DNA of 64,000 bases from Spirochaetia bacterium (GCA_034520965.1 JAXHMY010000001.1:800001-864000), one strand, 5' to 3'; counted from the first letter of the stretch, positions 43,233-62,942 are shown. Made by a program: numbers and translations. The notes: generated by a model from the sequence alone, not told the origin.

Positions 43233-43319
43233 TAACTTCCCGCGAGTACCCGAAGTTGGCGACCGACGGGAACCAATTTGGGCGAAGGCCGAATGGCCGT
43301 AGTCAGATACTCGCTGTTA
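43233..43319 (-). repeat. attC-like site 1
   Basis: TAAC-ttccc-GCGAGTA...TACTCGC-t-GTTA. Confidence 0.85.
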
Positions 43320-43329
43320 TCTGCTGTGC

Positions 43330-43589
43330 CTATTTTTTCCATTCTGCATAATGATCTGTGTATGTATCTAAAACTTTACGAATCATTTGTTGATATGGAA
43401 TATGTGTTTCTTCCGAGATTCGTTTGAAGAAATCAATGCTTTTTTTTGAAAGTGAGATGGTTACCTTCTTTGTCTCTTCTTTTGGTATTAACAACTCTGG
43501 TGGGGGAGTACATTTTCAATCTCGTTAGCTTCTAACAATGCTTCTCGTATGTCTTCCGGTGCCTCTTCATATTTAAAATTTTTCTTCAT
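43330..43589 (-). CDS. CopG/BrnA-like antitoxin, homopolymer frameshift; absent from ORF track
   Basis: Hand translation MKKNFKYEEAP...VLP/PPELL..KKVTISLSKKSIDFFK...IPYQQMIRKVLD. Confidence 0.7.
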
Positions 43590-43849
43590 ACCGCTGTTTT
43601 CCTTCACGCCAATATCCGGCGCCAACCAATCTTATAGCATTCTTTCGTATTGTAAACCTTACAGTGACGATTCCAGATTCAATTTTCCCAATACAAAAGA
43701 ACCTATCTTCATCGATACTATGCTTTTTATCTTCTAAAATTATCCTTTTAGAATCTAAAAAAGCAAATTGTGCTTCTTCGAATGAGATATTGTGTTTCTC
43801 TTTGTTAAGTACATTCTTATTCTCATCCCATATAAAGGCTCATAGACAT
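43573..43849 (-). CDS. BrnT-family toxin, frameshift just after start; absent from ORF track
   Basis: Hand translation FIWDENKNVLNKEKHNISFEEAQFAF.D...HSIDEDRF..IG. Confidence 0.75.
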
Positions 43850-43896
43850 ACACGACCTACTAACGACATTATATACAAGAAAATGGGCATTGCAGA

Positions 43897-43980
43897 CAGA
43901 CGTCTGCGAGTACCCGGAGTTGGCGAATGCAGAATGTGCCGAAGGCCAAGGCCGAAGCTCGCCGCATATACGCCCTGTTA
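43897..43980 (-). repeat. attC-like site 2, degenerate and chimeric
   Basis: Left core CAGAC instead of TAAC; the two halves resemble different site subtypes. Confidence 0.7.
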
Positions 43981-43996
43981 TCGGAAGTTTGGACGA

Positions 43997-44290
43997 TCAC
44001 GAGACTTTCATCCTTTGGATTCCACTCAATTCATCTCCAATTTTTGACCGCTCTTCTTCAAGATCATAATCATCTTGAAGCCCCAACCAGAATTGTGCAG
44101 AATTGCCAAAAAACTCAGAAAGCCTCAAGGCTGTATCTGCTGTTATTCTGCGTCGGCCTTGTAGTATCTGTGAAATTCGTGTTTGTGGTATTTTTATTTC
44201 TTTTGCTAACCTGTATGCAGTAATACCAAATGGTTCAAGAAATTCTTCCTGTAATATTTCTCCCGGGTGTATATTTCGTAACCTATCCAT
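43997..44290 (-). CDS. higA: HigA antitoxin
   Basis: IHPGEILQEEFL, ITADTALRL..FFG.SAQFWLGLQ. Confidence 0.92.
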   Translation of the reverse strand: MDRLRNIHPGEILQEEFLEPFGITAYRLAKEIKIPQTRISQILQGRRRITADTALRLSEFFGNSAQFWLGLQDDYDLEEERSKIGDELSGIQRMKVS

Positions 44291-44302
44291 AATTATCTCC
44301 TA

Positions 44303-44584
44303 TTAATGGTAATCCACAATTTCTACGTTCAATGCATTTCCATTTTGCCATTGAAAACATATCCTCCATTGTGAATTGATTCTAATGCTGTAAAGCCCTT
44401 CTCTGTCTCCTTTTAAGGATTCCAATCTATTATTGGGAGGAATCCTTAAATCATTAAGATCTTGTGCATTGTTCAACATTCTCAGTTTTTTTCTGGCTGG
44501 ATTTTGAATATCTATTGGTAGCTTCAATGATGTATTTCCATTCCAGATCTTTTCTGTTTCTTTAGATCTGAATCCGATGATCAT
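44303..44584 (-). CDS. higB: HigB toxin
   Basis: DLRIPPNNRLESLKGDR.G.YSIRINSQWRICF. Confidence 0.92.
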   Translation of the reverse strand: MIIGFRSKETEKIWNGNTSLKLPIDIQNPARKKLRMLNNAQDLNDLRIPPNNRLESLKGDREGLYSIRINSQWRICFQWQNGNALNVEIVDYH

Positions 44585-44661
44585 ACTTAGAATACTAACG
44601 GCTTGTGATAGTATTGTCAAGTAATATTATCGTAATCATTGCTTCGTCCGAATTTCCGAAG

Positions 44662-44746
44662 TAACGTTTTGCCGTGTAGCCGAAAGTTGGCGACCAATGA
44701 GAGCCAATTTTGGCGGAGCATAGCGGAGGCCGGGTACTCGTTGTTA
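44662..44746 (-). repeat. attC-like site 3
   Basis: TAAC...GTTA; vapC stop codon in the core. Confidence 0.8.
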
Positions 44747-45157
44747 TGTGATGTTTGGCTCAACAATCCAGTTTTCAATTTTTATTTCCGGTACCCTTTC
44801 GAATTCCTTTACATTATTTGTAACTATGCAAAGGTCTCTTGAAATACATTGAGCTGCTATCTGTAGATCGTATGGACCTATTGGTGTTCCTTTTTTATTC
44901 AAATGAACCCTAAGAAATCCAAAATTTTCGCAATCCTTTTCTGAAAAAGGAATTATTTCAAAAGGAGTAAGAAACTCCAATAATGTATCTCTATTATTCT
45001 TTGGATAGAAGCTTTTGGCAATTCCATATTCCAGTTCTGCTACAGTAACTGCAGATATGGCAATATTAAAGGTGTCCTTTTCTAAAACTTTTTCAATTAA
45101 AGTAGGATACTTCTTTTTTATTAAGTAGATGCATATGTTGGTATCAAGAAGATACAT
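44744..45157 (-). CDS. vapC: VapC PIN toxin
   Basis: YLLDTNICI, IGPYDLQIAA, VTNNVKEFER. Confidence 0.92.
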   Translation of the reverse strand: MYLLDTNICIYLIKKKYPTLIEKVLEKDTFNIAISAVTVAELEYGIAKSFYPKNNRDTLLEFLTPFEIIPFSEKDCENFGFLRVHLNKKGTPIGPYDLQIAAQCISRDLCIVTNNVKEFERVPEIKIENWIVEPNIT

Positions 45158-45387
45158 TAGAAAAAATCCCTTTCCTGCTGTTCCGGTTGTTCTCTTCCAT
45201 TTTTAAAAACATCATCAGAAAACTTATCCAGACTTTCTTCAAATGTTCTCCACAAGTCGTCTTTTGATGTGAGAATAATTGATTTGCCAACTTTTTGAAT
45301 ATATAGTTCTTTCTCATCAATAAAAAATTCTTTGGGTATACGTATAGCTTGGCTGTTTCCGCTTTTAAATACTTTAACCGTTTGCAT
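45157..45387 (-). CDS. vapB: VapB (AbrB-fold) antitoxin
   Basis: KVFKSGNSQAIRIPKEF. Confidence 0.9.
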   Translation of the reverse strand: MQTVKVFKSGNSQAIRIPKEFFIDEKELYIQKVGKSIILTSKDDLWRTFEESLDKFSDDVFKNGREQPEQQERDFF

Positions 45388-45449
45388 ATTGTCCTCCTTC
45401 ATAGAGGTATATACTTGTGTGTATACATTGTCAAGAGCCAAATATCACG

Positions 45450-45537
45450 TAACGTTCCCGGGGTTTATGACATTTGCCCGCAGGGCAAATGTGCCAAAGG
45501 CCAAGGAGCGGTGCAACGCCGCATATACCCCGTGTTA
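45450..45537 (-). repeat. attC-like site 4 (subtype shared with site 19)
   Basis: TAAC-gttcc-CGGGGT...ACCCCG-t-GTTA, inner ATTTGCCC-GCA-GGGCAAAT. Confidence 0.85.
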
Positions 45538-45554: not shown

Positions 45555-45869
45555 TTAGTATGCTTTGTCTCTTTGTTCCATGGACGTTATAGAAACTATT
45601 TGTATTGAGTCATCAATGATATAAAAAACTCGATAATCTCCTACCCGATAGCGCCAAGTTTCAGGAGACCAATTTCGAAGTTTTTTAATGTTTTTTCCAT
45701 AATACGGATTAACACGTAATTGGGGATAAACATAATTATGAATTTTCTGATATCTAGAATCAGTTTCCTTAATCCTGAGTCTCTTTAAATCCTTAAGGAA
45801 CTGATCAGTTTCAAAGATTTTAAATAAATCAGGCAAATCGGCCTCTACCTTTTGAGGCATCAATCGCAC
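45555..45869 (-). CDS. RelE/ParE-family toxin; true start probably near 45837
   Basis: NIKKL....ETWRYRVGDYRVFY.ID. Confidence 0.85.
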   Translation of the reverse strand: MRLMPQKVEADLPDLFKIFETDQFLKDLKRLRIKETDSRYQKIHNYVYPQLRVNPYYGKNIKKLRNWSPETWRYRVGDYRVFYIIDDSIQIVSITSMEQRDKAY

Positions 45870-46068
45870 CTTGTTTTAAGCGATCAACCAATTCTGGGTT
45901 ACCTGAAATGCTTTCCATTTCGAATTCATCAACATAGTCAACTTCATCTATATATCGCTTGGTAGCAGTTTCGATGAAGTTTGAAATAGATCGATTTTCT
46001 GCTGCAGCATGAATCTTCAGAGATTGATATAATGTGTTATCTACCCTTAATGAAATAGTTTTAGACAT
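45829..46068 (-). CDS. Ribbon-helix-helix antitoxin
   Basis: KTISLRVD...AAAENRSISNFIE. Confidence 0.8.
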   Translation of the reverse strand: MSKTISLRVDNTLYQSLKIHAAAENRSISNFIETATKRYIDEVDYVDEFEMESISGNPELVDRLKQGAIDASKGRGRFA

Positions 46069-46150: not shown

Positions 46151-46237
46151 TAACGTTTCGCGAGTACCCGAAGTTGGCGACCAACGGGAACCAATTTGGG
46201 CGAAGGCCGAATGGCCGGAGCCGGGTACTCGCTGTTA
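46151..46237 (-). repeat. attC-like site 5
   Basis: TAAC-gtttc-GCGAGTACCCG...CGGGTACTCGC-t-GTTA. Confidence 0.9.
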
Positions 46238-46265
46238 TCGGAAGGTTTTGGTGGTTCATTTCAAC

Positions 46266-46660
46266 TTACATAAGCGCTATCTTAATCTTCTTTCCTAAAG
46301 CCTTTGCTACTTTTTCTATTGTTGATAGTTTAATATCCTCCGAATGATTTTCCATCCTCGATATAACACTTTTTGTTGTATTAATTCTATTTGCTAACTC
46401 TTCACCGGATATTCCTTCATTTTTTATTCTTTTATCTACGTAATCATTGAGATTCATGTTTTTTCCTCCTAAAATAGTCTGTCTTATAAGTTTCAGCTTT
46501 TTTTATTTCATTTCGAGATGTCTTTTGTGTTTTCTTAATAATTCCAAGTGTTATTACAATCAGATTATTCTTAACCCAAAAACTGAACAACCTGTAAATG
46601 TTTGTATTAACCTTTATTCTTACTTCCCAAATTCCATCAGTTGATGCCAATTTCTTCTAT
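46266..46660 (-). pseudogene. Decayed copy of the Gp49/RelE-like toxin + XRE-HTH cassette
   Basis: Near-identical to 51655-52276; toxin 5' part missing, HTH has an 81-bp in-frame deletion. Confidence 0.85.
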
Positions 46661-46709
46661 TATTGATTTGTTCTTTTCTGTGTGTTCTGTGCATTTCGTG
46701 GTTCTTTCT

Positions 46710-47315
46710 TCACAGCTCATCGGTCTTAAATTCGCTGTAGCCTTCATAGAAATAGCTGACATCGATGCCTTTCATAAACAGGGAGTGGTCATCAATCTGA
46801 TCGGTCAATGCGCTTTTTAACAGTTCTTTGATTTCCACATCTTTGACCGGACTGCGCTCCATGGCAGACAGGTATTCCTCTTTATCGACCTGGTTCCAGT
46901 CGATGACCTTCCGAATCTCTTTTTTCAGGATGAGATCTAACCAGATGCGGGTAGCGCGGCCGTTACCTTCCCGAAAGGGATGGGCAATGTTCATCTCGAC
47001 ATATTTTTCGATTATCTCATCAAAGTTGCTCTGCGGCATGGTCTCGATGTGTTTGAGCGAGTGTTCCAGATACATAATCGGCGCAAAACGGAAATTGCCT
47101 TTGGTGATATTCACGTCACGGATACTGCCGGCAAAATCATAAATCTCACCAAACAGATAGGTATGAATGAAGGCCAGTCCTTTAAAGGTGCCGACATTTA
47201 CTTGTTGAATGTCGCCCGACTCAAACAGTTGCTTGGCTTTTTGTTTGCTGATCTTTTCTTCGGCTTTGGCCAGCTCAATTTGATCGGTGATGCCCAGTTT
47301 GTTTTCCAGAATCAT
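46710..47315 (-). CDS. fic: Fic-domain AMPylase (class III, NmFic-like)
   Basis: [13 protein letters not shown]-terminal SYFYEG inhibitory motif. Confidence 0.9.
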
Positions 47316-47331
47316 ATCTTACCTTTTTTTT

Positions 47332-47409
47332 TAACTACGGAATACACAGAATACACTAAAAGCTTTTTAATAAAACTCTTCTTCCGTGTTTTCAATGTGT
47401 TCTGTGGTT
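47332..47409. repeat. Second-family AAC...GTT palindromic element with 9-bp periodic arms; half copy at 46677-46703
   Basis: AACTACGGAATACACAGAATACAC...GTGTTTTCAATGTGTTCTGTGGTT. Confidence 0.7.
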
Positions 47410-47411
47410 TA

Positions 47412-47663
47412 CTATTCTTCTTTCTCATGCGTCACCGCCTTTTTTACGGCTCTCTTTTTTGGCCTGTTTTCCAGTGCGGCGATGGTTTCAAGGTAGTCTT
47501 TTTCCACGTTTACCAGCGTTTTTCCTTTGGGAGTCTGAAAGAGCTTGACAATCTGACCCTGGGTCAGGTAGATGGGTTCGTTCTGCAGGATAGTGTCTAC
47601 TTTTATATCACCTTCAGGAGTTGTGTAGACGATTATTTGGTATTGTTTAGACTCTTTCTTCAT
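47412..47663 (-). pseudogene. Internally deleted RhuM-like gene
   Basis: N-terminus aligns with 38270-39292 (IIVYTTPEGDIKVDTILQNEPIYLTQ vs IILYKTTDGNIKIDTVFQNETIWLTQ). Confidence 0.7.
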
Positions 47664-47701
47664 GCTATTTTTCTCCCATCATCTTGGTGCGGTATTGCCT
47701 A

Positions 47702-47783
47702 TAACGTTCCGCGTGTAGCCAAAGTTGGCGCCCAACGGGAGCCTATTTTGGCGGAGCATAGCGGAACCAGCTATTTGCTGTTA
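47702..47783 (-). repeat. attC-like site 6
   Basis: TAAC...GTTA with the shared AAGTTGGC...CAACGGGAGCC interior. Confidence 0.8.
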
Positions 47784-47804: not shown

Positions 47805-48023
47805 TTACGCTTCTTTAATAATATCCTCAAATGAATGGAATTTTACTTTTCCTTTACTTTCAAGGGTTTCATATTTTTTTATCTCTTCCCTGTCAATAAT
47901 ATCTTCATACATATCATTCAACGATGTTTTTATTACAGTTGATTTATCTTTTTCTAAATAGTCAGTCAGAAAGAAAAGCATCTTTTCCTCTTCTTCGGTT
48001 AGTCTTATTGATACAACACTCAT
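47805..48023 (-). CDS. RHH (DUF6290-like) antitoxin
   Basis: SVVSIRLTEEE...KSTVIK; overlaps toxin stop. Confidence 0.7.
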   Translation of the reverse strand: MSVVSIRLTEEEEKMLFFLTDYLEKDKSTVIKTSLNDMYEDIIDREEIKKYETLESKGKVKFHSFEDIIKEA

Positions 48024-48298
48024 TTATACACATCCTCCCTCTTGGAGATTTTTACTACGATAATATCATCTTCCTGGAAATAAAATATTGCTCGATATTT
48101 TCCTTTCCTTAATCTAAAATACTCACGTAATTCTGATCCTTGCAATCTTTTAATATCAAATAGGGTCAAATCTTTTGTGAGTTCTAGTGATTGAAAAGCA
48201 TGGTGCATATGCTCAAATATGTGCTTTGGAATCAATCCTCTTTTATATGCTTTTAAAACAGCATTTTCATATTTGATCATGTAAACATTGTAATACAA
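48020..48298 (-). CDS. RelE-like toxin
   Basis: DIKRLQG....YFRLRKGKYRAIF...REDVYK. Confidence 0.8.
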   Translation of the reverse strand: MYYNVYMIKYENAVLKAYKRGLIPKHIFEHMHHAFQSLELTKDLTLFDIKRLQGSELREYFRLRKGKYRAIFYFQEDDIIVVKISKREDVYK

Positions 48299-48337: not shown

Positions 48338-48424
48338 TAACGTTCCGCGGCTATGCGAAGTTGGCGACCAACGGGAGCCAATTTGGGCGGAGGCTGAAGG
48401 GCCGTAGCCGGGTACTCGCTGTTA
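48338..48424 (-). repeat. attC-like site 7
   Basis: TAAC...GTTA; left arm GCGGCTATGCG mismatches right arm. Confidence 0.8.
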
Positions 48425-48441: not shown

Positions 48442-48735
48442 CTATGAAGCTTTAACATGTGGGATCTTCTCTAATTCCTGTGCTATATGCTTCTTTTCTT
48501 CGCGTAAATCATACTCATCTTGTATCCCGAGCCAAAAATCCGCTGAATTACCAAAGTACTTGGAAAAGCGTAGGGCCGTATCAGCGGTGATCCTGCGATT
48601 GCCTTTAATAATTTGTGATATCCTCGTTGCCGGGACATTCGTATCCTTTGCCAGCCTGTAAGCTGTTATATTCATTGGTTTAAGAAACTCTTCCAATAAA
48701 ATTTCTCCCGGTGTAATTGTTGGTATCTTTTCCAT
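48442..48735 (-). CDS. higA: HigA antitoxin, second paralogue
   Basis: TPGEILLEEFL, ITADTALRF..YFG. Confidence 0.92.
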   Translation of the reverse strand: MEKIPTITPGEILLEEFLKPMNITAYRLAKDTNVPATRISQIIKGNRRITADTALRFSKYFGNSADFWLGIQDEYDLREEKKHIAQELEKIPHVKAS

Positions 48736-48749
48736 GCTTTTACCCTCAG

Positions 48750-49031
48750 TTAATGATAATCTGTAATCTCAACTTCACTTGCAGCTCCATTATTCCAGTT
48801 GAAGCAGATCCTCCATTGATTATTTATTCTAATACTATATTGTCCTTTCCTATTCCCTGCTAATTGCTCCAATCTATTGCCAGGAGGGACCCTCAAATCG
48901 TTTAAATCTTTTGCTCTGTGCAATACAATCAGCTTCCTTAATGCAACTTTTTGCATTTCTTTGGGAAATCTCTTTGAATAGATTTCTTCCCATATTTTTT
49001 CGGTAGCCTTATCTTTGAATGATTCGATCAC
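48750..49031 (-). CDS. higB: HigB toxin, second paralogue
   Basis: DLRVPPGNRLE.L.G.RKGQYSIRIN.QWRICF. Confidence 0.92.
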   Translation of the reverse strand: MIESFKDKATEKIWEEIYSKRFPKEMQKVALRKLIVLHRAKDLNDLRVPPGNRLEQLAGNRKGQYSIRINNQWRICFNWNNGAASEVEITDYH

Positions 49032-49099: not shown

Positions 49100-49186
49100 T
49101 AACGTCCCGCGAGTACCCGAAGTTGGCGAACAACGGGAGCCAATTTGAGCGGAGGCCGAAGGGCCGTAGCCGGGTACTCGCTGTTA
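49100..49186 (-). repeat. attC-like site 8
   Basis: TAAC-gtccc-GCGAGTACCCG...CGGGTACTCGC-t-GTTA. Confidence 0.9.
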
Positions 49187-49249: not shown

Positions 49250-50023
49250 TTATTCCTTGATTGCTCTGGTTGCAATAAAAGAGTTAATATACGAATCTAA
49301 CAGATCTCCACCAGAAGAGTCTTCATAGAATCCTTTAATGGTAAATCCAACATCAATCTGACCGCCGATTTGATCCTGTAATGAATGTCCGAATTCTAGT
49401 GTTTCCTTATTCGCAATCCTTAATTCCAGTTGTTCTTTCGGAAGGTGTTCTAAATCAGAATACGGAATCCTATGTCTTACTGTAAGATTTTGATTAACAT
49501 CCCATTCATGCATATCAAAAATATATGTTATTGGGTTTCCAAAGCCTGCTAATAATGGTCCGCCTTTCTTTAGAACTCTATAACACTCTTTCCATACTTT
49601 ATTTACGTCGTCTATGAAGCAATTTGATACTGGATGAAATATCAAATCAAAACTATCATCAGCAAACCTCGATAAATCACGCATATCTCCTTGTTCAATT
49701 GCAATTGACAATCTTTCTCTTGCCGCAACCATCTTGTCTCTTTCGAGTTGATACGGGCTATTGTCAAGCACTGTTACTTCTGCCCCTGTGGCTGCTGCTA
49801 AAACTGGTCCTTGTTGTCCACCACCTGATGCTAAACATAGTATTTTCTTTCCATCAAGTTTTGGAAACCAATCTGAAGGTACAGGTTTGGTTGGTGTAAG
49901 TACGACACTCCATTTCCCCTTTCTGGCTTCCTCTATTTGTTGTGAATTTACAGGTTTGGTCCAAATATTCCCATCTTCGACCTGCTTATTCCACGCCTCA
50001 CGATTGTGATCCAGTATTTCCAT
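49250..50023 (-). CDS. Class I SAM-dependent methyltransferase cassette
   Basis: ILCLASGGGQQ, GDMRDL..F.D.SFDLI. Confidence 0.88.
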   Translation of the reverse strand: MEILDHNREAWNKQVEDGNIWTKPVNSQQIEEARKGKWSVVLTPTKPVPSDWFPKLDGKKILCLASGGGQQGPVLAAATGAEVTVLDNSPYQLERDKMVAARERLSIAIEQGDMRDLSRFADDSFDLIFHPVSNCFIDDVNKVWKECYRVLKKGGPLLAGFGNPITYIFDMHEWDVNQNLTVRHRIPYSDLEHLPKEQLELRIANKETLEFGHSLQDQIGGQIDVGFTIKGFYEDSSGGDLLDSYINSFIATRAIKE

Positions 50024-50116: not shown

Positions 50117-50200
50117 TAACGTTACAGAAATATACGAAGTCCGGCTACGCCGCATTTGCCGAAGGCCAAGCCCGTAGGGCGCAGCGCATATTTCTTGTTA
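50117..50200 (-). repeat. attC-like site 9
   Basis: TAAC-gttac-AGAAATAT...ATATTTCT-t-GTTA. Confidence 0.8.
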
Positions 50201-50209
50201 TAAGACGTA

Positions 50210-50497
50210 TTACCTTTTTTGAGTGGTTAATGGGTCAGCTACAGTTTCAGAGTTCTCATAGATATTTTCCGGATCAATATCAATACAGTCATATGGATCA
50301 TAATTTCCAGAAAGATCCCAAGCAAGAGTATTATTCAAAACAGTACATTTGTTTTGAAAATCATCGATATTAGATATTCTAGAGAATACGCCTTTTCCTA
50401 GAAGCGGAGATACATCATATTTTTTTATAATCCCGTCGGAAAAGTAAACAAAAACAGTGAAATCTTTTTGAGGAAGTACTTGTACTACATCATGCAT
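50210..50497 (-). CDS. DUF2442 protein (putative antitoxin)
   Basis: VVQV.P..DFTV.VYFSDG....DV, TLAW, DIDPE.IY. Confidence 0.8.
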   Translation of the reverse strand: MHDVVQVLPQKDFTVFVYFSDGIIKKYDVSPLLGKGVFSRISNIDDFQNKCTVLNNTLAWDLSGNYDPYDCIDIDPENIYENSETVADPLTTQKR

Positions 50498-50507
50498 ATT
50501 GATCTCC

Positions 50508-50768
50508 TTACGTTAAGGGCTCCATCCGATGGATTTCTCCATGTTGTTTTGCGGAATTTCAATTTTGTAAAAGCTCATTTTCATGTAATTCACACCATGC
50601 TAAAACTAGTTTTAATTGTCTAGATGGCAAAGAACCCTTGATAACAACTGCATCATTTATTGACACAAGAGCTTTTTCATTGCCCTATTGAGCATGGAAA
50701 TGAGGAGGTGTATGATCATCCCAATACATATAAATTTTTATTCCGAAAAACTCGCATACTAATGGCAT
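50508..50768 (-). pseudogene. DUF4160 protein (putative toxin) with two in-frame stops
   Basis: MPLVCEFFGIKIYMYWDDHTPPHFHAQ*G...LLQN*NS; TAG 50685-50687, TGA 50559-50561. Confidence 0.85.
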
Positions 50769-50825
50769 GTAGACTCCTGTTGTCCATATTATACTAGAAA
50801 ATTTCAAAAAAGGTAATATGTCGTA

Positions 50826-50837
50826 TAACTCCCATTA
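50826..50837 (-). repeat. Collapsed attC-like site 10
   Basis: TAAC-TCCC-ATTA; both flanks match their partner cassette ends. Confidence 0.65.
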
Positions 50838-50866
50838 AATGTAGTGCCAGGCATTCTTCTCAGCTC

Positions 50867-51626: not shown

Positions 51627-51654
51627 TCGGAAGGTTTTGGTGGTTCATTTCAAC

Positions 51655-53587: not shown

Positions 53588-53597
53588 AAAGATCCTC

Positions 53598-54506: not shown

Positions 54507-55313
54507 TTATTGGTCGTCTATTTCATAAGATTCCTCCAAGAAATTAAGTACTAATTCATTAAATCTTACTGGATTAACCAGATTTGAAGGATCCATTGAA
54601 TCCTCAATCACAAGTAACTCTATTTTTAATGCATCAGAAATCTTCCTATTAATATCTATAAAGGACTTTCCAAATTGATTTCCAACCATCACCAAACTTG
54701 GTTTATCTATTTCTTTCAATAGAATTAGTAAATCGACCTTATTAATTGCTTTTCTCGCTATTATCATTTGGTCTAAATCCACAGTCAAACTTATTTCTTG
54801 AAAATAGGATTTTGCTTCTTGTGCATAATCTGCTTTATACGTTGAAGCCATACCTTTAGCTAACATCTTTTTTCCTAAGACTTTGAATATTCTAAATCCT
54901 AAAATTTGTGAGTATCCCAACATTCTTTCTTTAAATGATTTTAGTTCACCAAAACTATCTGATATTACCAAATTTGCCAGTTTGTTAGGATAGGTAATAG
55001 CAAAATGTTGTGCAATTACACCACCCATACTCACACCAATCAATGTAGCCTTTTCTATAGATAAATACTCCATTAATTCGGTAATCTGATTTGACCAATC
55101 GTATAAGGATAAATCCTTCATCTTGGATGATTTTCCATGTGTTAGTAAATCCAAAGCAATAACATGATATCCGTTTTCACTAAATATCTTTCTCTGATGT
55201 TTCCACATATTAGTATCTGCACCAATACCATGCAATAGAACCAATGTTGAATTTTGAGGATTACCATATGTTTCATAATAGGTTACCAAATTATTCTTAT
55301 GTCTAAATTCCAT
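54507..55313 (-). CDS. Alpha/beta hydrolase cassette
   Basis: LLHGIG, DLLTHGKS, GVSMGG nucleophile elbow. Confidence 0.88.
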   Translation of the reverse strand: MEFRHKNNLVTYYETYGNPQNSTLVLLHGIGADTNMWKHQRKIFSENGYHVIALDLLTHGKSSKMKDLSLYDWSNQITELMEYLSIEKATLIGVSMGGVIAQHFAITYPNKLANLVISDSFGELKSFKERMLGYSQILGFRIFKVLGKKMLAKGMASTYKADYAQEAKSYFQEISLTVDLDQMIIARKAINKVDLLILLKEIDKPSLVMVGNQFGKSFIDINRKISDALKIELLVIEDSMDPSNLVNPVRFNELVLNFLEESYEIDDQ

Positions 55314-55356: not shown

Positions 55357-55444
55357 TAACGTTCCGCGAGTACCCGAAGTTGGCGACCAAGGGGAGTCAA
55401 TTTGGGCGGAGGCGCTTGTCGCTGTAGCCGGGTACTCGCTGTTA
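55357..55444 (-). repeat. attC-like site 14
   Basis: TAAC...GTTA main subtype. Confidence 0.9.
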
Positions 55445-55460
55445 TGGGAAGTTTCTGCTT

Positions 55461-55883
55461 TCACCGGAATGAGTGCTTTGATATGTATTCTAATGCTGCA
55501 TGTGTCAAGAATCCTGATCTGGTTTCTCCTTCTAAGTTTGCAAAATTGTCTATCTTTGAAAGTAGTTTCTCTGTAATTGTGATATTGATACGCTTTACAT
55601 TCTCAGAAAGTTTATTCATATCAATTTCGCAGAGCATCCATATATAATTCGGATTATTAAAGGTCGTTTTCAATTCTTCTACACGGGAAGGTGGTGGTAC
55701 AATTTCCTCATCCATCAGTAATCCTTCAATATGTGTAAGTATTGCCTCTTCTGCATTTAAAATTGCTTCATCAACTGTTGCACCTGCGGAAAAACAACCC
55801 TGGAGATCTGGGACAGTGACACCATAGTCTGAAGTTTGCTCTTTTTCTATAAAAATTGGGTATCTCATATGTACTCCCTCCAA
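55461..55883 (-). CDS. hicB: HicB antitoxin (RHH C-terminus); probable start MRYP
   Basis: YGVTVPDLQGCFSAG.TVDEA, RINITI, TRSGFL. Confidence 0.9.
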   Translation of the reverse strand: MEGVHMRYPIFIEKEQTSDYGVTVPDLQGCFSAGATVDEAILNAEEAILTHIEGLLMDEEIVPPPSRVEELKTTFNNPNYIWMLCEIDMNKLSENVKRINITITEKLLSKIDNFANLEGETRSGFLTHAALEYISKHSFR

Positions 55884-56062
55884 TCAATACCAGCTTGTCT
55901 AAAAATACTCTTTGTAGTACCAATTGGTAGGTCTGATTTTGGATGCGGAACAGTAACTTTTCCGGTTTTGGTATTGTGCTTAAACTGATAATGAGAACCA
56001 CGAATATTATGTACAAACCATCCATCCTTCTTTAGGATTTTGATTATTTCTGAGCTTCTCAT
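55865..56062 (-). CDS. hicA: HicA toxin
   Basis: LKKDGW....RGSH.QFKH....VTVPHPK.DLP.GT..SI..QAG. Confidence 0.92.
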   Translation of the reverse strand: MRSSEIIKILKKDGWFVHNIRGSHYQFKHNTKTGKVTVPHPKSDLPIGTTKSIFRQAGIDWREYI

Positions 56063-56107
56063 GTCTAATAATACACACGATGTGTATAAATGTCAATTGA
56101 TTTAGCA

Positions 56108-57804
56108 AAGCAATTCGAAATGTGAGAAAGCATCGAGAGGGAAGTAACTCTAATATCTCTAACTAGACATTTTATCCTTACTATAGTATAGTGTCCGTAT
56201 GGGAGGGGCCGGATACAGCTTTGCTGTACTGTTACAATTTTTAGAGGACTCAATTACGACATTCCCGGATGTACGCAAAGGGAAGAACACCGTATATGAA
56301 GTACGCGATGCGGTACTATCGGCCTTTTCGATGTTCTTCATGCAATGCCCCTCCTTCCTTGCTCATCAGAGAGCGATGGGCATGAGGAAAGGGAAGAACA
56401 ATGCCGAAAGCATATTCGGTGTTCACAAGATTCCAACTGACACCCATATTCGAAATCTGCTCGATCCAATACCGCCGGAGCTACTATTCCCGGTCTTTGA
56501 CAAGGTCTATGAGTTTCTCCTCACTGAAGGGGTTATCAAGGAGATGATTACCCACGATAATTTACTGTTGATTGCCCTTGATGGGACCTGGTTTTTTTCC
56601 TCCGAGCAGCTCTTCTGTCCCTCCTGCCAAACCAAAACACATAAAAGTGGAAGCGTAACCCATTACCACAGTGCCATTACCCCGGTCATTGTCAGACCAG
56701 GGGTAAACTATGTGGTCGGTCTTCCCTCGGAATATATTACCGTCAATGATGGTGCTACGAAACAGGACTGTGAAAACAAGGCGGTGAAACGGTGGATAGA
56801 GACAATTGGGAGAAAGTACCTGTCGGAACAGCACACTGTTGTACTGTTAGGCGATGATCTGTACAGCAGGCAGCCGGTATGTGAGCACACCATGGCCTCC
56901 GGCTGCAGCTTTATCTATGTATGTAAAACAGCATCACACAAGTATTTATACGAGTGGATCGATGAGTTCACCGCCGAGGATCTGCACGAAAGTTACAAAC
57001 GCATATGGGATGGCAAGAGGCGGCTGACCTATCGCTACCGGTACCGCAACGATGTCCCTCTCAAAGACGGTGATGAGTCGCTGAAGGTAAACTGGATGGA
57101 ACTAACCATCCTGAGCGAAGAGGGGCAGCTGATTAAGCACTTCTCCTTTGTTACCGACATTCCCGTAACTGATACAAATATCGAGGATATGATCTCTTAC
57201 GGTTGAAGCCGGTGGAAGATAGAAAACGGAAACAACAACATTCTCAAGACAAAGGGCTACCATCTGGAACATAACTTTGGCCATGGGGATAAGCATTTAT
57301 CGAACTTCCTGATGACCTTGAACCTTCTTTCCTTCCTCTTTCATACCACTGCCGGGTTGTTCGACAGACGATATATACTACTTCGCAAAACCCTGCCGAG
57401 CCGTCAGACATTCTTTCATGATGCTCAGGCGTTAACCAAATATTTCTTCTATGAAAGTTGGGAGCATCTTCTCAAAACGATGATCATTGGCCTGGAACTC
57501 GAAGACCCGGGCGGATGACCGGTCAACCAAATCCACGCTCTTTTTTGATGTAGAAAGCTCTCCTCACCATCATTCACTCTCAATCTCTCCTCTTTCTACC
57601 TAAAGCTGAGCTCACTGAATTATTTCCCTGAATATGAACTGAACAGAGTTTTAAAGATGATGGAATGTGAGCTTTTCACCATTCACACACTGTGTGAGCT
57701 CTTCAATTTTGGTGCAGGGATTAGCCTCTCCCAACCGCTGTAAAGAAATAAGCCTAGCTGTATCACAGCCTTTACCCGAAATTATGTCACTTTTCGCATT
57801 GCTG
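56108..57804 (+). mobile_element. Insertion sequence (ISNCY-like DDE) with 9-bp target duplication
   Basis: GATTTAGCA at 56099-56107 and 57805-57813; imperfect IRs AAGCAATTCGAAATGTGAGA / revcomp CAGCAATGCGAAAAGTGACA. Confidence 0.85.
56199..57518 (+). pseudogene. ISNCY-like transposase with in-frame TGA at 57204-57206
   Basis: IALDGT, LGDDLYS; frame continues SRWKIENG...GYHLEHNFGHG after the stop. Confidence 0.85.
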
Positions 57805-57824
57805 GATTTAGCAGAAATTTCCGA

Positions 57825-57912
57825 TAACGTCCCGCGAGTACCCGAAGTTGGCGACAGACGGGAGCCAATTTGGGCGAAGGCGCTTGTCGCCGCAGCCGGG
57901 TACTTGCTGTTA
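57825..57912 (-). repeat. attC-like site 15
   Basis: TAAC...GTTA main subtype. Confidence 0.9.
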
Positions 57913-57935
57913 TGTGAAGAAGCCTTTTCCTCTAA

Positions 57936-58349
57936 TCATTTTAGAACTATTTCTAATTCTTTATTGAATATTTTGGCTATTTTCTCCAGAGTTTTAACAG
58001 TAGGATTGCATCTTCTTGGATTTTCCAGTCTTTGATATGATTGATAAGAGATACCAAGTTCTTTAGCTAATTCTATTTGACTTTTTTTATCTCTTATTTT
58101 TCTTAGTCGAAGTGCTACTTCAATATGTGGTTTGATATAGATCCGGTGATAGTTTTTGCCTTTATATTCTTGTGGATCCTTTATTTCAAAACCTCTTTCA
58201 AAATCAGATTCGATGCTTCCATTCAATGCTTCTTCAGCATTTTTAATTGCTTCTTCCACGGTTCTTCCATAAGTGTTTATATGTTGAAACTGTGGAAAAG
58301 AAACAATAAAATCATCGTCTTCTTTATCAATCAATGCATAGTAATACAT
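57936..58349 (-). CDS. hicB: HicB antitoxin with XRE-HTH
   Basis: FIVSFP....NTYG.TVEEA..NAEEAL; SQIELAKELG.SYQ.YQRLE. Confidence 0.88.
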   Translation of the reverse strand: MYYYALIDKEDDDFIVSFPQFQHINTYGRTVEEAIKNAEEALNGSIESDFERGFEIKDPQEYKGKNYHRIYIKPHIEVALRLRKIRDKKSQIELAKELGISYQSYQRLENPRRCNPTVKTLEKIAKIFNKELEIVLK

Positions 58350-58406
58350 ATTAGCTCCTATAAAAAGTCAATCACAAGCTTTCCAGAAAGCTCATAATTT
58401 AGCCGG

Positions 58407-59524
58407 CTATCCGGCCTTTGCGGCATCACATGCTGCCGCCTGCATTTTCAAATACTTTTGAGAGTGCTCCATCCTTAGTGGATCGAAGGACTCTCTGTTT
58501 TTTAGCATCATGTAGATAACCGGTACTCAATTTCCGTGCTGTAGCTATTATGCTCTTCCCGCTACCTTTGTGTTTCTTCATATACTCATAGCGGGTCATA
58601 ACTCTGTACCCGCCGGTTTGTTCTTTTATTTCTGACCATTCCCAATACGCATTGCACCATTGCCGTTCTTATTTCCCTTCGGTCCCCGTTTGGTTATATG
58701 CCCGTGATGGGATCATCTCGTTCTGAGTTCTGTACCCACGGTGCCAGGCCCATATGAGCAGCGAACTTCTTCGGGCTCTCATAACGGTCAATATCATCAA
58801 TAAAAGCCCTCAGTGTAGCAGCAGTTATCAACCCAACTCCGGGAATCGTCTGCAACAACTCTACATCTTTGTCCTCAGCAACCATGCTCTCAAGCACCTT
58901 CTCCAGCTTCTTGACCTGTGCACTAAACTGGTCTAAAGTATCGAAGAGCGGCTTGACCGCTTCGGCAGCGCTTCCGTAAACCTTATGGTCCACGAGACCG
59001 GAAAGGATGCGCTGCCTCTCTTTTTTACTCTGCAGCTGTCCTCTCTTCGTCTCGATCCCATAGCCGAGCAGCATACCGTGAATCTGGTTCTTTATTCCAA
59101 CCAACGCTTTCACCGCTATCGACCTCGTTTTCAATACTCTTCGGATATCCTCACTCGTTTGACTGCACAGCCTCGATTCAGGAAGCATATCCTTCTCCAA
59201 AAACTCCGCAAGTGTTCGTGCATCGTGCTTGTCCGTCTTCTTGACCGACTCGTTGACCACCTTGAACTTCAAGGTGTTTACCACCGTCACTTCAATTCCG
59301 GCACTCAGCAGCCGGTTGCGGAAATAACGGGCGTTACCGGTTGACTCAACCGCCGCATGCACCTCATACCCTGCCTCTACGTACTCGCTACATTTACTGA
59401 GGAACTCTTCATATCCGATTTCTTTTGTCGGATAGATTCCCGTTTCCACTGCTTTCCGGTTTTCCGCCAGAAAACAGACAGTGAATTGGCTCTTGTGCAG
59501 ATCCACTCCAATACTCATCTTCAT
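58407..59524 (-). CDS. IS110 DEDD recombinase with several C-terminal frameshifts
   Basis: IGVDLHK, VESTG, KTDKHDA, TIPGVG, GLAPWVQNS; later frames give GHITKRGP...IIATARKL. Confidence 0.9.
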
Positions 59525-59559
59525 CGCTTCTCTCCTGTTCTGTTCAAAACAGCTCCGGT

Positions 59560-59700
59560 TTGGTGAATTGATTCCATTCTCCTATTCGGTCTCGTAGACC
59601 ATTGAATGCTTCGGTTACGGCTCTTCATTCTCCTCTGACGGTTGTAGACCAATAAAAATGCCGAACAGTAACCTGCTGTCTCAAACTAAGTTTGCGACAG
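59560..59700 (-). ncRNA. Candidate IS110 bridge RNA
   Basis: 5' hairpin (59676-59700) plus two related stem/internal-loop units holding target-like CTCCTCT and donor-like CTCCTAT; boundaries approximate. Confidence 0.6.
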
Positions 59701-59704
59701 TATA

Positions 59705-59926
59705 TCAATCCACAAAGCTTATGAAGACCTTTTTATCATTCCTCCTCTCTATTCCGGCTTGTTTGAGAATTCTCTTTGCTAATCCGATTGGAATCTCTTT
59801 CTTCCCGTGAACTGGTATAGGTATAGATCTTCTCCCTTCCTTGATCATTATATGATGGCTACCAGATATTCTATCTAATACCCAGCCATGGTCTTTTAAT
59901 AATTTTATTAAATCTTTTCCTGTCAT
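59705..59926 (-). CDS. hicA: HicA toxin with C-terminus altered by the IS110 insertion
   Basis: LKDHGW...RISGSHH......IPIPVHG.KEIP.GL...ILKQAG. Confidence 0.9.
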   Translation of the reverse strand: MTGKDLIKLLKDHGWVLDRISGSHHIMIKEGRRSIPIPVHGKKEIPIGLAKRILKQAGIERRNDKKVFISFVD

Positions 59927-60047
59927 TTTAGATAATTATACAACCTTTATGTTGTATAGTCAATTTTATTAATTTTCTTTTCGAAGGTTTTTTGCGGTAG
60001 TAACCAATTTCCTAATCAAAACTCATATTCTTTAAGGCTTTTTCACA

Positions 60048-60123
60048 TAACGGGGCGGCGGGTATCCGCAGTGGCCAGGTAAAGCCGGAGGCTTGTACGG
60101 GCCATTGAGGATACCCGCCAGTT
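60048..60123 (-). repeat. attC-like site 16, distinct GC-rich subtype
   Basis: TAAC-ggggc-GGCGGGTATCC...GGATACCCGCC-a-GTT. Confidence 0.8.
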
Positions 60124-60204
60124 GTCTGAAGTTGCGGAGCAACGGAAGACAGCTGGCGGGCTTGCCCGCCGCTCCGTTCTACAAAAGTGCGAAGCAATTT
60201 TGGA

Positions 60205-60286
60205 CAACGTTCCGCGAATAGACGAAGTTGGCGACCAACGGGAGCCAATTTGGGCAGAGCGAAGCGTAGCCGGGTACTCGCTGTTA
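60205..60286 (-). repeat. attC-like site 17
   Basis: CAAC...GTTA with main-subtype interior. Confidence 0.8.
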
Positions 60287-60516: not shown

Positions 60517-60645
60517 TAACGTCCCGCAAGTACCCGAAGTTGTCCGACCACTTGCTCCGCAAGTGGCTTGCCATAAAATCTGAGATTTTATGGTCGGGCA
60601 ATTTGGGCGGAGGCGCTTGTCGCCGGAGCCGGGTACTCGCTGTTA
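60517..60645 (-). repeat. attC-like site 18, long variant
   Basis: Near-identical to 52350-52479. Confidence 0.88.
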
Positions 60646-60897
60646 TGCGATGAATTGTGAAGCGTCAACAGAACTTTCTTTATAAAGAATTTCGGGATCT
60701 AAATCTGCTCCGTTTGGCCATTCAATTGTATCGAATTTTACTGATACTGCATTAAATATTGAAACATCCCGTAATTCCGAAAAGATACCGAAATCAAGAT
60801 AGGGGGAAACATCAAAATACCGTTTCTCATCATTCTTAAAGATAAGTAACAATTTGTAATCTGAAAGAGGTTTTACATCTTTAACACCCAAATACAT
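60643..60897 (-). CDS. DUF2442 protein (putative antitoxin)
   Basis: VKDVKPL.DYKL.L.F.N.E.R.FD, TIEWPNGADLDPE.LY. Confidence 0.85.
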   Translation of the reverse strand: MYLGVKDVKPLSDYKLLLIFKNDEKRYFDVSPYLDFGIFSELRDVSIFNAVSVKFDTIEWPNGADLDPEILYKESSVDASQFIA

Positions 60898-60907
60898 AAA
60901 ATCCTCC

Positions 60908-61174
60908 TTATTGTAATGGATCAATTTTGTAGGGTGATTCACCATTTTGGGCTAATTGCCAATCAGCAAGTAGTTCATCTTTATGTAATTCTGCCCAAGC
61001 TTCTATAAGCTTTATTTGTCGTTTCGGTAGATTGCCTTCAGTCATTTCGCAAATGTTAATATCAAAGATTCCTTTGAAATCCTGATAATATGCATGGAAG
61101 TGAGGAGGGTTATGCTCCTTCTTTCCCAGCTACATTCTAATGACAATTCCAAAAAACATTGAAATAGTAGGCAT
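60908..61174 (-). pseudogene. DUF4160 protein (putative toxin) with in-frame TAG
   Basis: MPTISMFFGIVIRM*LGKKEHNPPHFHAYY...AWAELHKDELLADW; TAG at 61130-61132. Confidence 0.85.
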
Positions 61175-61232
61175 AGCCTATATTATATCATCTCCTTCCA
61201 TTATAGTCTATTTTGCTTCACAATTTGTCGCA

Positions 61233-61320
61233 TAACGTCCCCGGGGTATAAGACGTTTGCCCGCAGGGCAAATGTGCTAAAGGCCAAAGAGCGGAGCGAC
61301 GCCGCATATACCCCATGTTA
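61233..61320 (-). repeat. attC-like site 19
   Basis: Same subtype as site 4. Confidence 0.85.
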
Positions 61321-61372
61321 GACGATGTCACGAACCTTCTTCAAAGCCAAGCAACATGGATGTTGTTTGGCT

Positions 61373-61702
61373 TTATTCTATTAACATTTCTTGCAGCACA
61401 CTTTTGACGAGTTCAATTTCTTTTTTATTTATTTTCCCAATTTTCTTAATCAATCTTTTCCTATCAACCGTCCTCAATTGATCTAAGACTATCCATCCAT
61501 TTTTTTTTTCAAATTGAAGAGGAACACGTGTTGGATATTTATATGATTTCGTTGTCATCGGGGCTATTATGATTGTCTGGATTGATTCATTCATCTCATT
61601 TGGAGAGATTACCAAGCAGGGGCTTGTCTTTTTTATTTCATGGCCAACAGTTGGATCTAAGTTAATTAAATACACTTCATATTGTTGTATTACCATTCCC
61701 AT
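61373..61702 (-). CDS. mazF: MazF/PemK toxin
   Basis: NLDPTVGHEIKKT.PCLVISP, DQLRTVD..RL. Confidence 0.9.
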   Translation of the reverse strand: MGMVIQQYEVYLINLDPTVGHEIKKTSPCLVISPNEMNESIQTIIIAPMTTKSYKYPTRVPLQFEKKNGWIVLDQLRTVDRKRLIKKIGKINKKEIELVKSVLQEMLIE

Positions 61703-61950
61703 TCAAAATCGTCCTGCTCATTTAGATTGTCCAGAAATAATGAATCATCACCATTCTTGTGCATCTTCATAAACTCTTCGGGCCATCCTTCTCTTGGCTT
61801 TTTCTTTATTGGTCGAATCAGAATTTCCGTATTATGCACTTCCAACTCTACTTTCTCTTCAATGTTTAATTGTTGTAAAATACTCTTTGGAATCCTAATT
61901 CCTTTTGAATTGCCTATAGGAACCACTGAAACTAACATATTACACCTCAA
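61690..61950 (-). CDS. mazE: MazE/AbrB antitoxin
   Basis: IGNSKGIRIPK. Confidence 0.88.
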   Translation of the reverse strand: MRCNMLVSVVPIGNSKGIRIPKSILQQLNIEEKVELEVHNTEILIRPIKKKPREGWPEEFMKMHKNGDDSLFLDNLNEQDDFEWEW

Positions 61951-62044
61951 CTAATGTAATTATATAGTAGTTACGTAATTTCGTCAATCTTTTGCTTGCT
62001 AAGGATTGCAAGCTTCTTCTTTCTCTTAGGTTCGTGATTTCGTC

Positions 62045-62132
62045 TAACGTCCCGCGAGTAGCCGAAGTTGACGACCAACGGGAGCCAATTTGGGCGAAGG
62101 CGCTTGTCGCCGGAGCCGGGTACTCGCTGTTA
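62045..62132 (-). repeat. attC-like site 20
   Basis: TAAC...GTTA main subtype. Confidence 0.88.
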
Positions 62133-62160
62133 TCTGGAGGTTTTGGTGGTTCATTTCAAC

Positions 62161-62433
62161 TTACATAAGCGCTATCTTAATCTTCTTTCCTAAAGCCTTT
62201 GCTACTTTTTCTATTGTTGATAGTTTAATATCTTCCGAATGATTTTCCATCCTCGATATGACACTTTTTGTTGTATTAATCCTATTTGCTAACTCTTCTT
62301 GTGTTAACCCACTTCTTTCTCTTGCTTCTTTTAAGAAAATCCCGATTTTGTAATCCTCATAACCTTCCCAAAACTCTTCACCGGATATTCCTTCATTTCT
62401 TATTCTTTTATCTACGTAATCATTGAGGTCCAT
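62161..62433 (-). CDS. XRE-HTH antitoxin (copy)
   Basis: Near-identical to 51655-51927. Confidence 0.88.
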   Translation of the reverse strand: MDLNDYVDKRIRNEGISGEEFWEGYEDYKIGIFLKEARERSGLTQEELANRINTTKSVISRMENHSEDIKLSTIEKVAKALGKKIKIALM

Positions 62434-62782
62434 GTTTTTTCCTCCTAAAATAGTCTGTCTTATAAGTTTCAGCTTTTTTAATTTCATTTCGAGATGCCTT
62501 TTGTGTTTTCTTAATAATTCCATGTGTTATTACAATCAGATTATTCTTATCCCAAAAACTGAACAACCTGTAAATGTTTGTTCCAACCTTTATTCTTACT
62601 TCCCAAATTCCATCAGTTGATGCCAACTTCTTGAAATAGGTTTTTGGTACAAAATCCATTTCTTCTATTATCTTTAATGTCCATGCAATCTTCTTCACTA
62701 CACCCATCTCAAGGCTATCAAGAAATTCCTCAACAGGACATTTTCCTTTATCAGTTGTGTAGAAGATCACTTCTCTATGCAT
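62420..62782 (-). CDS. Gp49/DUF891 RelE-like toxin (copy)
   Basis: Near-identical to 51914-52276. Confidence 0.88.
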   Translation of the reverse strand: MHREVIFYTTDKGKCPVEEFLDSLEMGVVKKIAWTLKIIEEMDFVPKTYFKKLASTDGIWEVRIKVGTNIYRLFSFWDKNNLIVITHGIIKKTQKASRNEIKKAETYKTDYFRRKKHGPQ

Positions 62783-62855
62783 AAGAGAATGTTAGCATGC
62801 GTGCTAACAATATTCAAGACATTATTTTAAGCTATTTCCTACCAAAACTTTCAGA

Positions 62856-62942
62856 TAACGGGCGCGGCTATATGAAGTTTTTGCGTAACGCAGTAAAGCA
62901 AAAATTTGGGTGTTGCGAAGCGTAACCATATAGCTGCTGTTA
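62856..62942 (-). repeat. attC-like site 21
   Basis: TAAC-gggc-GCGGCTATATG...CATATAGCTGC-t-GTTA. Confidence 0.8.

Follow-up and report, generated by a model that had tools for sequence, protein, structure and literature searches.

Cassette arrays with asymmetric, bulged sites and an insertion-less tyrosine recombinase: a likely second class of integron

Introduction

Integron definitions and searches rest on two features, the insertion that marks the integron integrase IntI and the fold of the attC site. Can a row of gene cassettes that has neither of them still be an integron? This question is raised by a chromosomal locus of a Spirochaetia bacterium (GCA_034520965.1), found in a window of 64,000 nucleotides (C1:800001-864000 of a 3.35-Mb genome, 86% complete). 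Here, about 22 gene cassettes stand in a row, separated by lopsided hairpin attachment (att) sites, next to a tyrosine recombinase. The system lacks both features, yet it has an attI-like site, cassettes and the same core. An original prediction, made on the window alone, had proposed a cassette-capture system with its own recombinase and with sites that standard attC models could miss, and this interpretation is supported by the work reported here. We conclude that the cassette array, the attI-like site and a family of insertion-less recombinases likely form a system that captures and shuffles cassettes by cutting folded single-stranded sites. Coordinates without prefix are window positions, and papers given by PMC number are cited for their passages on the point concerned.

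Geometry and anatomy of the att sites

Twenty hairpin att sites lie between 43233 and 62942, and a 21st is located just past the window (C1:864214-864295). A collapsed junction (50826-50838) is additional to the 20 window sites, and the array continues past both 43233 and 62942. For every site the plus strand is the 'bottom' strand, which reads TAAC, 5 nt, stem, and after the hairpin stem, 1 nt, GTTA. Registers were scored over 10 positions with a threshold of at least 8 Watson-Crick pairs. At this threshold 14 of the 21 sites pair in the predicted 5:1 register and one, the site at 62856 for which a 4-nt spacing had been noted, in 4:1, while none does so in the symmetric or near-symmetric registers 4:4, 5:5, 5:4 and 6:6 (means 1.4-2.2). 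The remaining six sites are degenerate, with best register scores of 5-7. As a control for chance, a strict scan of the whole genome gave 22 matches, 13 of which fall inside this 21-kb array. When 18 of the 21 sites were aligned, 89.8% of the cells were paired, compared to 29-45% in slid registers, and 12 of 24 pairs had changed on both sides. The branching of the main subtype into two hairpins, noted earlier, is confirmed. The claim that the subtypes are unrelated in sequence seems to hold for the site at 60048 only (z at most 1.9); with the cores removed, the subtypes at 46151, 45450, 50117 and 62856 align at z = 2.9-5.3 in five of six pairs, and are mostly distant relatives.

We reject a reading of the window sites as canonical attC. 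There is no symmetric pairing, neither canonical spacers nor extrahelical bases were seen in the array, and a scan for canonical sites finds none. A stand-in attC model, built from 10 canonical attC sites and not IntegronFinder's own, recovered all eight held-out sites of a canonical integron in the same genome (L102, E at most 0.003); in the window it matched no att site at E up to 10, giving three weak matches outside sites (E 2.5-8.4). That attC models might overlook these sites had been anticipated. No site matched a curated Rfam model, Flavo-1 included, at E up to 1. Flavo-1 RNA was thus rejected as a name for the sites, and the single Flavo-1 match in 10 homologue loci is a different element.

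The general anatomy was derived from 137 distinct sites of 37 loci. Two inverted boxes (about CRYATAA and NTWTRCG) surround a spacer whose two arms measure 6 and 10 nt, and the four additional bases bulge out directly after AAC on the bottom strand. These unequal spacer arms with their 4-nt bulge describe the geometry better than the 5:1 register does. Along the inner stem (positions 9-19), in-register pairing ranges from 73 to 97% per position. One outer position retains a T-G wobble in 78%, and of the two strands the bottom one is the more stable in 123 of 135 sites. After the seventh inner-box base, a side branch of 9-52 nt leaves the 3' arm in 87 of 135 sites. For attC sites, 5-6 unpaired bases per arm, an extrahelical G and T on the L'' arm and a stabler bottom strand have been described (PMC5027507). 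A single extrahelical base on the 3' arm was not found here, and a bulge of 1-7 nt after position 19 occurs in none of the 135 sites.

Cassettes and the crossover point

The genes between the sites, mostly toxin-antitoxin pairs, are all on the minus strand except for one transposase-like open reading frame (ORF). Each cassette is bounded by its own inverted repeats of about 19 bp. Over 22 junctions, cognate ends match at 11.0 of 16 positions on average and non-cognate ends at 5.7, a cognate mean that is lowered by two junction rows which are off register by 1-2 nt and were retained. The cognate partner is best in its row for 17 of the 22 junctions, and none of 100,000 permutations was as high. 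At homologous loci (133 cassettes), cognate ends match better than the same-site level as far as about position 20; in canonical arrays this excess ends at position 8 (four loci) or about 11 (the integron on C3 of this genome). Duplicated cassettes keep the same site subtype and body on the 3' side of the gene. Just as for attC, this locates the crossover at the TAAC/GTTA core on the far side. The AAC/GTT part of the core is nearly invariant among the sites, and we infer that the exact phosphodiester cut falls within it. One 88-bp cassette carries GTTG/CAAC at both ends; therefore the fourth core base travels with the cassette.

Contigs from other samples join different neighbours at the cores, although these are contigs only and repeats leave some joints ambiguous. 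Run X4 includes one joint precisely at the first cassette's TAAC; in a contig of the same run, the site at 55357 and the HicAB cassette stand beside a different left neighbour. A joint in run X1, leading from about 56107 back to 55356, was considered as an excised HicAB circle; an insert-free cassette beside another repeat copy fits as well, and the joint was not counted. Copies of the MazE/PemK cassette with 82-85% identity occur in three genomes of another spirochaete family (L111, L114 and L116).

The attI-like site and the adjacent recombinase

A hairpin-less junction, the attI-like site, starts at C1:864806, 39 bp past the stop of a 357-aa tyrosine recombinase (C1:864849-865922, minus strand) that is transcribed toward the array and co-oriented with the cassettes. 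A tyrosine recombinase beyond position 64000 that differs from IntI had been suspected, and this one lacks the IntI-specific I2 insertion: it is short of about 31 + 10 residues that IntI1, a spirochaete IntI and VchIntI4 (PDB 2a3v) possess. The catalytic R, K, HxxR, H and Y motifs are present, and PF00589 is matched with 131 bits. The IntI model TIGR02249 (cut-off 265) gives 155 bits in two stretches and 184 bits for an intact homologue; with NF040815 (cut-off 220) an intact homologue reaches 218.9 bits. The recombinase scores below the XerC, XerD and XerA cut-offs; in the tree it falls outside the Xer clade and is placed with IntI. Its closest homologue among named records is from an uncultured Sediminispirochaeta. 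Two other full-profile Phage_integrase matches are on C8, and a search for the dif site of the genome gave two unconvincing matches.

In the collapsed junction at 50826-50838, the site body has been swapped for six bases of the attI-like junction (top strand TAA-TGGGAG-TTA). It is best read as the product of an aberrant attI x site event, and these bases would mark the junction as a working attI, suggesting a 6-bp spacer. Among 42 homologous loci an attI-like start could be scored in 24, lying at 23-112 bp from the recombinase stop in 21 of them. The consensus has an A-rich spacer before GTTA and is attI1-like in L109. In L010, L020, L028, L045, L047 and L049 a short inverted repeat precedes the attI core, possibly representing extra recombinase binding sites. 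A promoter scan gave three consensus matches (1.0 +/- 1.0 expected), one of them upstream of the recombinase on the cassette strand and none clearly a cassette promoter (Pc).

This recombinase has lost, by an in-frame deletion, a 12-residue helix that each of the 24 untruncated comparison proteins in the alignment retains. A contig of run X2 shares the deletion (this run is probably the source sample and hence not independent), while run X3 has a longer allele. Because of the deletion, the local copy is probably impaired.

The first 65 or so residues match the HARP domain (PF07443), as known from SMARCAL1, weakly but repeatedly, and the best PDB match is 4o66 both by profile (E 0.012) and by Foldseek (E 0.011, TM 0.60). 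The N-terminal domain is thus likely HARP-like, judging from these comparisons. HARP proteins bind forks and junctions (PMC4035279). The same HARP-like N-terminal domain was also seen in some true IntIs (L193, L195, L197, L200 and L101). The idea that the HARP domain replaces the IntI insertion is weakened, with the domain in 5 of 22 IntIs and lacking in 20 of 92 insertion-less enzymes. A single-sequence structure model of the full recombinase (pLDDT 41) was set aside, and an ESM Atlas search returned unnamed clusters only, below 0.9. Phylogenetically, IntI and insertion-less enzymes group together against five Xer-type proteins (support 100/99). IntI is nested inside the insertion-less enzymes in a quick 105-row tree. 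A careful tree had 32 rows, after removal of 4 mis-trimmed ones and with 2 chosen rows missing; here the insertion-less enzymes form one clade in 20% of bootstrap trees, and the approximately unbiased (AU) test does not reject such a clade (p 0.37).

A family trait across genomes

When 201 genomes of the class were sampled, 26 of them had homologues of the recombinase (E up to 1e-45). The best 79 homologue loci (80 of 566 candidates kept) represent Bacillota, Bacteroidota, Ignavibacteriota, Atribacterota, Spirochaetota, archaea and others. In these 79 loci the register offsets -4 and -3 gave 67 and 35 matches, compared to 3 and 2 in shuffles. The sites have a clear position relative to the enzyme: over 96 loci, same-strand sites number 174 downstream (418 kb) and 4 upstream (621 kb), and those on the opposite strand 4 downstream and 9 upstream. 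Where at least 3 kb of downstream sequence was available, a site is present in 35 of 42 loci. Nine short control loci (L093-L101; eight other tyrosine recombinases and one IntI) contain no site. Among 29 genomes chosen for such sites, no IntI above cut-off was found in 26, the three positives being class-level spirochaete relatives. Searches of plasmid and phage records returned distant recombinases only.

Arrangements vary to some degree. In L104 (1948-6223) and L071 (1191-5395) insertion-less recombinases are divergent from the arrays, as in classical integrons, and the L071 sites have a longer bulge, with 6 nt after TAAC. In L115 and L116 (genome G054) the array exceeds 30 asymmetric sites, and its many cassette duplicates, tandem or repeated, suggest that it was active recently.

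A canonical integron in the same genome

The genome also encodes a canonical sedentary integron (C3:40628-80998; L102 259-10999) with 20 attC sites of 128-130 nt that have 4:4 spacers and an extrahelical base. Its IntI is divergent and split by a frameshift, possibly an assembly error. The scan for canonical sites gave 20 matches on C3 and none in the C1 array, and no asymmetric site was found in the scanned C3 stretches. By blastn the two arrays share no DNA, and they have no common site type or cassette. The two site types also segregate elsewhere: 42 IntI loci contain 76 canonical and 4 asymmetric sites, while 98 insertion-less stretches contain 198 asymmetric and 13 canonical ones. Three further attC sites of the same length were noticed on C8 and C2. 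In the first cassette of the C3 integron (L102 8527-9496), PADLOC identifies genes for a Pycsar cyclase (PycC, E 5e-62) and a transmembrane effector (PycTM, E 3e-23).

Discussion

We show here that the spirochaete array shares a general plan with sedentary chromosomal integrons, which consist of IntI, attI and attC: co-oriented cassettes are each followed by a folding site with an AAC/GTT core, a single attI lies beside the recombinase, the bottom strand is the stabler one and the cargo is rich in toxin-antitoxin genes. The recombinase is co-oriented with the cassettes, as in the Treponema-type integron, where intI is transcribed toward attI (PMC3607928). In contrast to sedentary integrons, the enzyme is devoid of the roughly 35-residue IntI insertion, and the sites have a 6/10-nt spacer and a 4-nt bulge instead of 5-6 nt per arm. 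There is no sign of an extrahelical G, whose arm often bears a side branch, and the cassette end repeats are about 19 bp long instead of 8-11 bp. The insertion near patch III is regarded as IntI-specific, and insertion-less recombinases near attC are held not to be IntI (PMC4889954). Since both the IntI insertion and the attC fold are missing, the system is not filed as a canonical integron, though it is integron-like in its working. We consider it a likely second class of integron.

Related systems differ in instructive ways. Like the clusters of attC sites lacking integron-integrases (CALINs; PMC4889954), the arrays described here are cassette arrays without a recognisable IntI; unlike these, they have their own site type and a dedicated enzyme. 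An integron-like subgroup of simple tyrosine recombinases, in which the insertion is not fully conserved, has been described (PMC8138268), and our recombinase is likened to it by that description. In the passages concerned, neither this work nor the NF040815 entry ('site-specific tyrosine recombinase/integron integrase') assigns sites, arrays or a function to insertion-less members. Archaeal integrons have been reported with canonical features (PMC9668308), and a single complete integron is on record for Firmicutes, with very few for Bacteroidetes (PMC9024848). The 'integron-like element' of C. ulcerans is something else: besides its recombinase it comprises one gene and a toxin gene, and the description concerned mentions no array (PMC12103533). 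Full-text literature searches, with most subscription journals outside their coverage, returned no description of the present system.

Several explanations have to be weighed against a dedicated recombinase that acts on folded sites. The sites could be variant attC that a canonical IntI, here that of C3, recombines in trans, leaving the adjacent recombinase as a bystander or decayed relic. An IntI is indeed encoded on C3 and in all eight other same-class array genomes checked, canonical attC occur within asymmetric arrays of five relatives, and the adjacent recombinase carries a deletion. This explanation has to face 26 genomes with such sites in which no IntI was found, and arrays that begin at an attI-like site just behind an insertion-less recombinase in 21 of 24 scored loci. 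It also has to account for the scarcity of asymmetric sites at IntI loci (4, compared to 76 canonical ones) and for C1 and C3 arrays without a common site type or cassette; we consider it improbable. Only slightly less improbable is an enzyme that acts on double-stranded, Xer-like boxes in the manner of dif modules, with a hairpin that is incidental or serves as terminator or stabiliser of an RNA. In Xer/dif sites, a 6-bp spacer separates two inverted binding boxes, each about 11 bp long. The inverted boxes around a 6-nt spacer seen here correspond to this ordinary layout of tyrosine-recombinase sites, the best enzyme score is that of a XerA-type model (NF040815), and the hairpins lie directly 3' of genes. 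However, in duplex DNA the half-sites are 60-170 bp apart, so that the box-spacer-box unit forms only on the folded single strand, and, in further contrast to Xer/dif, one recombinase serves many cassettes. Nor would a role in RNA fit with a non-transcribed bottom strand that is the stabler one in 123 of 135 sites and that keeps the wobble T-G, and the cassette end repeats can pair in the excised circle only.

That the sites are repetitive extragenic palindromic (REP) or miniature inverted-repeat transposable element (MITE)-like repeats, between which transposases gathered genes, is the least probable explanation and is already largely refuted. Two insertion sequence (IS)-like insertions in the array and the near-identity of the main subtype would fit, but the sites are confined to this locus within the genome, are co-oriented with one per gene and have cassette-specific end repeats. 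Across phyla they track one recombinase family with little sequence conservation, and the nine control loci have none. Thus, capture and shuffling of cassettes by the insertion-less recombinases remains the likely explanation.

Other observations weigh against it and should be kept in mind. All evidence is comparative, and cassette recombination is deduced from it. The local recombinase copy is probably impaired. Most of the 26 IntI-negative genomes are metagenome-assembled, of unstated completeness, and they include kin that are not independent (five Halanaerobium). A downstream site is missing in 7 of the 42 loci; in two of these, L104 and L071, the sites are located upstream of a divergent recombinase. 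Nine of the 13 canonical matches in insertion-less stretches are true canonical-type attC inside asymmetric arrays of five spirochaete relatives (L110, L111, L113, L115 and L117), and all five genomes encode IntI above cut-off elsewhere. Strict segregation of the site types thus had to be given up: segregation is strong, not absolute. Mostly, these canonical-type sites have the same self-complementary flanks around the core. In the eight other same-class array genomes IntI is above cut-off in seven and split in one, so that cross-talk or action in trans is possible there. At the level of the sites, 34 of 135 have no side branch and 14 were not assigned, four of the subtypes are related to one another, and the local attI spacer reads 6 bp whereas the consensus of the 24 attI-like sites suggests about 7. 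The HARP match is weak as well: E values of up to 0.05, seen in 20 of 26 members, fall short of the Pfam gathering cut-off, and the VIA Z score is 4.8 at rank 21, compared to 5.2-5.7 for UvsW, MotA and XPB and 6.7 for eIF1. Moreover, the domain is absent in 20 of 92 insertion-less enzymes, some of them truncated, and present in 5 of 22 IntIs.

How might such a system work? We regard it as probable that the bottom strand folds, that a single strand is cleaved at the A/C step of AAC and swapped with attI or a further site, and that the product is resolved by replication; strand-stability bias and covariation point this way indirectly. The bulge and the side branch might do the job of the extrahelical bases, leaving only one strand cleavable and making the IntI insertion unnecessary, a proposal to which we give somewhat less than an even chance. 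More doubtful, though possible, is that the HARP-like domain binds branched DNA. Owing to the long end repeats, an excised circle would serve better as a substrate than an integrated site, and integration would be favoured. A wider picture, for and against which the chances seem to us evenly balanced, is that the insertion-less lineage constitutes a widespread second integron class of bacteria and archaea with bulged, branched single-stranded sites, that it can coexist with a canonical integron in one chromosome without cassette exchange, and that IntI arose from it.

If the system is active, integron surveys miss a cassette pool in groups that are thought to be nearly free of integrons. The evolution of single-strand, structure-specific recombination from Xer-like enzymes and the role of the IntI insertion would also become testable, and a genome with both systems offers matched substrates for a test of orthogonality. 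The locus described here contributes the matched canonical integron, a box-and-bulge model of the site, the collapsed junction by which the attI spacer is pinned down, and a candidate domain for junction binding.

Gene content of the array

Unless stated otherwise, sites in the following are on the plus strand and cassette genes on the minus strand. At the far end of the array, matching end repeats at 35768 and 43236 suggest that a type I restriction-modification (R-M) operon (hsdM, YhcG nuclease, hsdS, RhuM, hsdR; 35768-43236) is a probable terminal cassette of 7.5 kb, and whole defence operons may thus be moved by the system. The far end of this putative cassette is degenerate, with a mutated GTT core; position 35768 matches the flank of the site at 43233 in 16 of 22 positions and that of the site at 47702 in 17 of 22, and the diagnostic mismatch at position 11 is present. 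The YhcG (PDC-S02) and RhuM (PDC-S05) genes are embedded in the operon. Beyond it, a DUF7686/DUF7713 gene on the same strand (35205-35684) is possibly an older cassette that has lost its site.

The operon is followed by a main-subtype 5:1 site (43233-43319) and a degenerate site with a mutated left core (43897-43980). Next come HigB/HigA toxin-antitoxin genes (43997-44620), a degenerate site (44662-44746, best register 6:1 at 7/10) and a PIN toxin with a MazE-type antitoxin (VapBC-like, 44744-45441). A second-subtype 5:1 site (45450-45537) precedes a ParE toxin with a ribbon-helix-helix (RHH) antitoxin (45555-46068); all three pairs were assigned by Pfam. Behind a main-subtype site that pairs 10/10 at 5:1 (46151-46237), a composite deleted unit with non-cognate ends (46234-47705) holds a partial Gp49/helix-turn-helix (HTH) pair, a Fic gene and a short ORF. 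A degenerate site (47702-47783, 6/10 at 5:1) leads to a DUF6290 antitoxin-like gene and a weak ParE-like gene (47805-48298), and a site with a degenerate stem (48338-48424) to a second HigB/HigA cassette (48442-49031, Pfam). Between a main-subtype site (49100-49186, 10/10) and a third-subtype 5:1 site (50117-50200) lies an S-adenosylmethionine (SAM) methyltransferase gene (49250-50023, Pfam). The following DUF2442 cassette (50197-50829) has cognate end repeats (14/16) and abuts the collapsed junction.

On the other side of this junction, an SRPBCC/polyketide-cyclase-like gene (50958-51404, Pfam), a main-subtype site (51540-51626) and a Gp49/HTH toxin-antitoxin-like cassette (51623-52353) come before a long site of 130 nt (52350-52479) that travels with the DUF2442 cassette. 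The composite unit at 52476-54406 has non-cognate ends and contains a DUF2442 gene, a membrane protein and a CAAX protease. A site at 7/10 (54403-54490) and one at 10/10 (55357-55444) flank an alpha/beta hydrolase gene (54507-55313, Pfam).

Two cassettes are interrupted, and the array in this genome appears to be decaying. The HicAB cassette (55441-57828) is broken by an insert of about 1.7 kb with a 9-bp target duplication, and an insert-free allele exists in run X4. The insert (56107-57809) is present in a single copy and has a transposase-like ORF on the plus strand with an internal stop and no Pfam or NCBIfam match. Behind a main-subtype site (57825-57912), a HicA/HicB-HTH cassette (57909-60051) is broken by an IS110 element, with IS-free alleles in runs X3 and X4. 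This copy (58357-59680) differs from the run contigs by several single-base indels, reflecting decay or assembly error, and a 92% identical copy is located at C1:48143-49577.

The unrelated subtype without side branch (60048-60124, 10/10 at 5:1) is followed by the ORF-less 88-bp cassette with the core variant (60121-60208, no strand assigned) and by a site (60205-60286) with a truncated copy of the first cassette behind it. A long site of 129 nt (60517-60645) leads to a DUF2442 cassette (60642-61236) that duplicates the one at 52476, and a second-subtype site (61233-61320) to the MazE/PemK cassette (61317-62048). Next to a main-subtype site (62045-62132) stands a second Gp49/HTH cassette (62129-62859), 96-97% identical to the one at 51623. 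The 4:1 site (62856-62942) precedes a serine hydrolase cassette of the beta-lactamase family (62939-64000), which continues past the window to C1:864217. Between the 21st site and the attI-like site lies the first cassette of the array, encoding a DUF3795 protein (C1:864292-864809), with end repeats that match at 15 of 16 positions.

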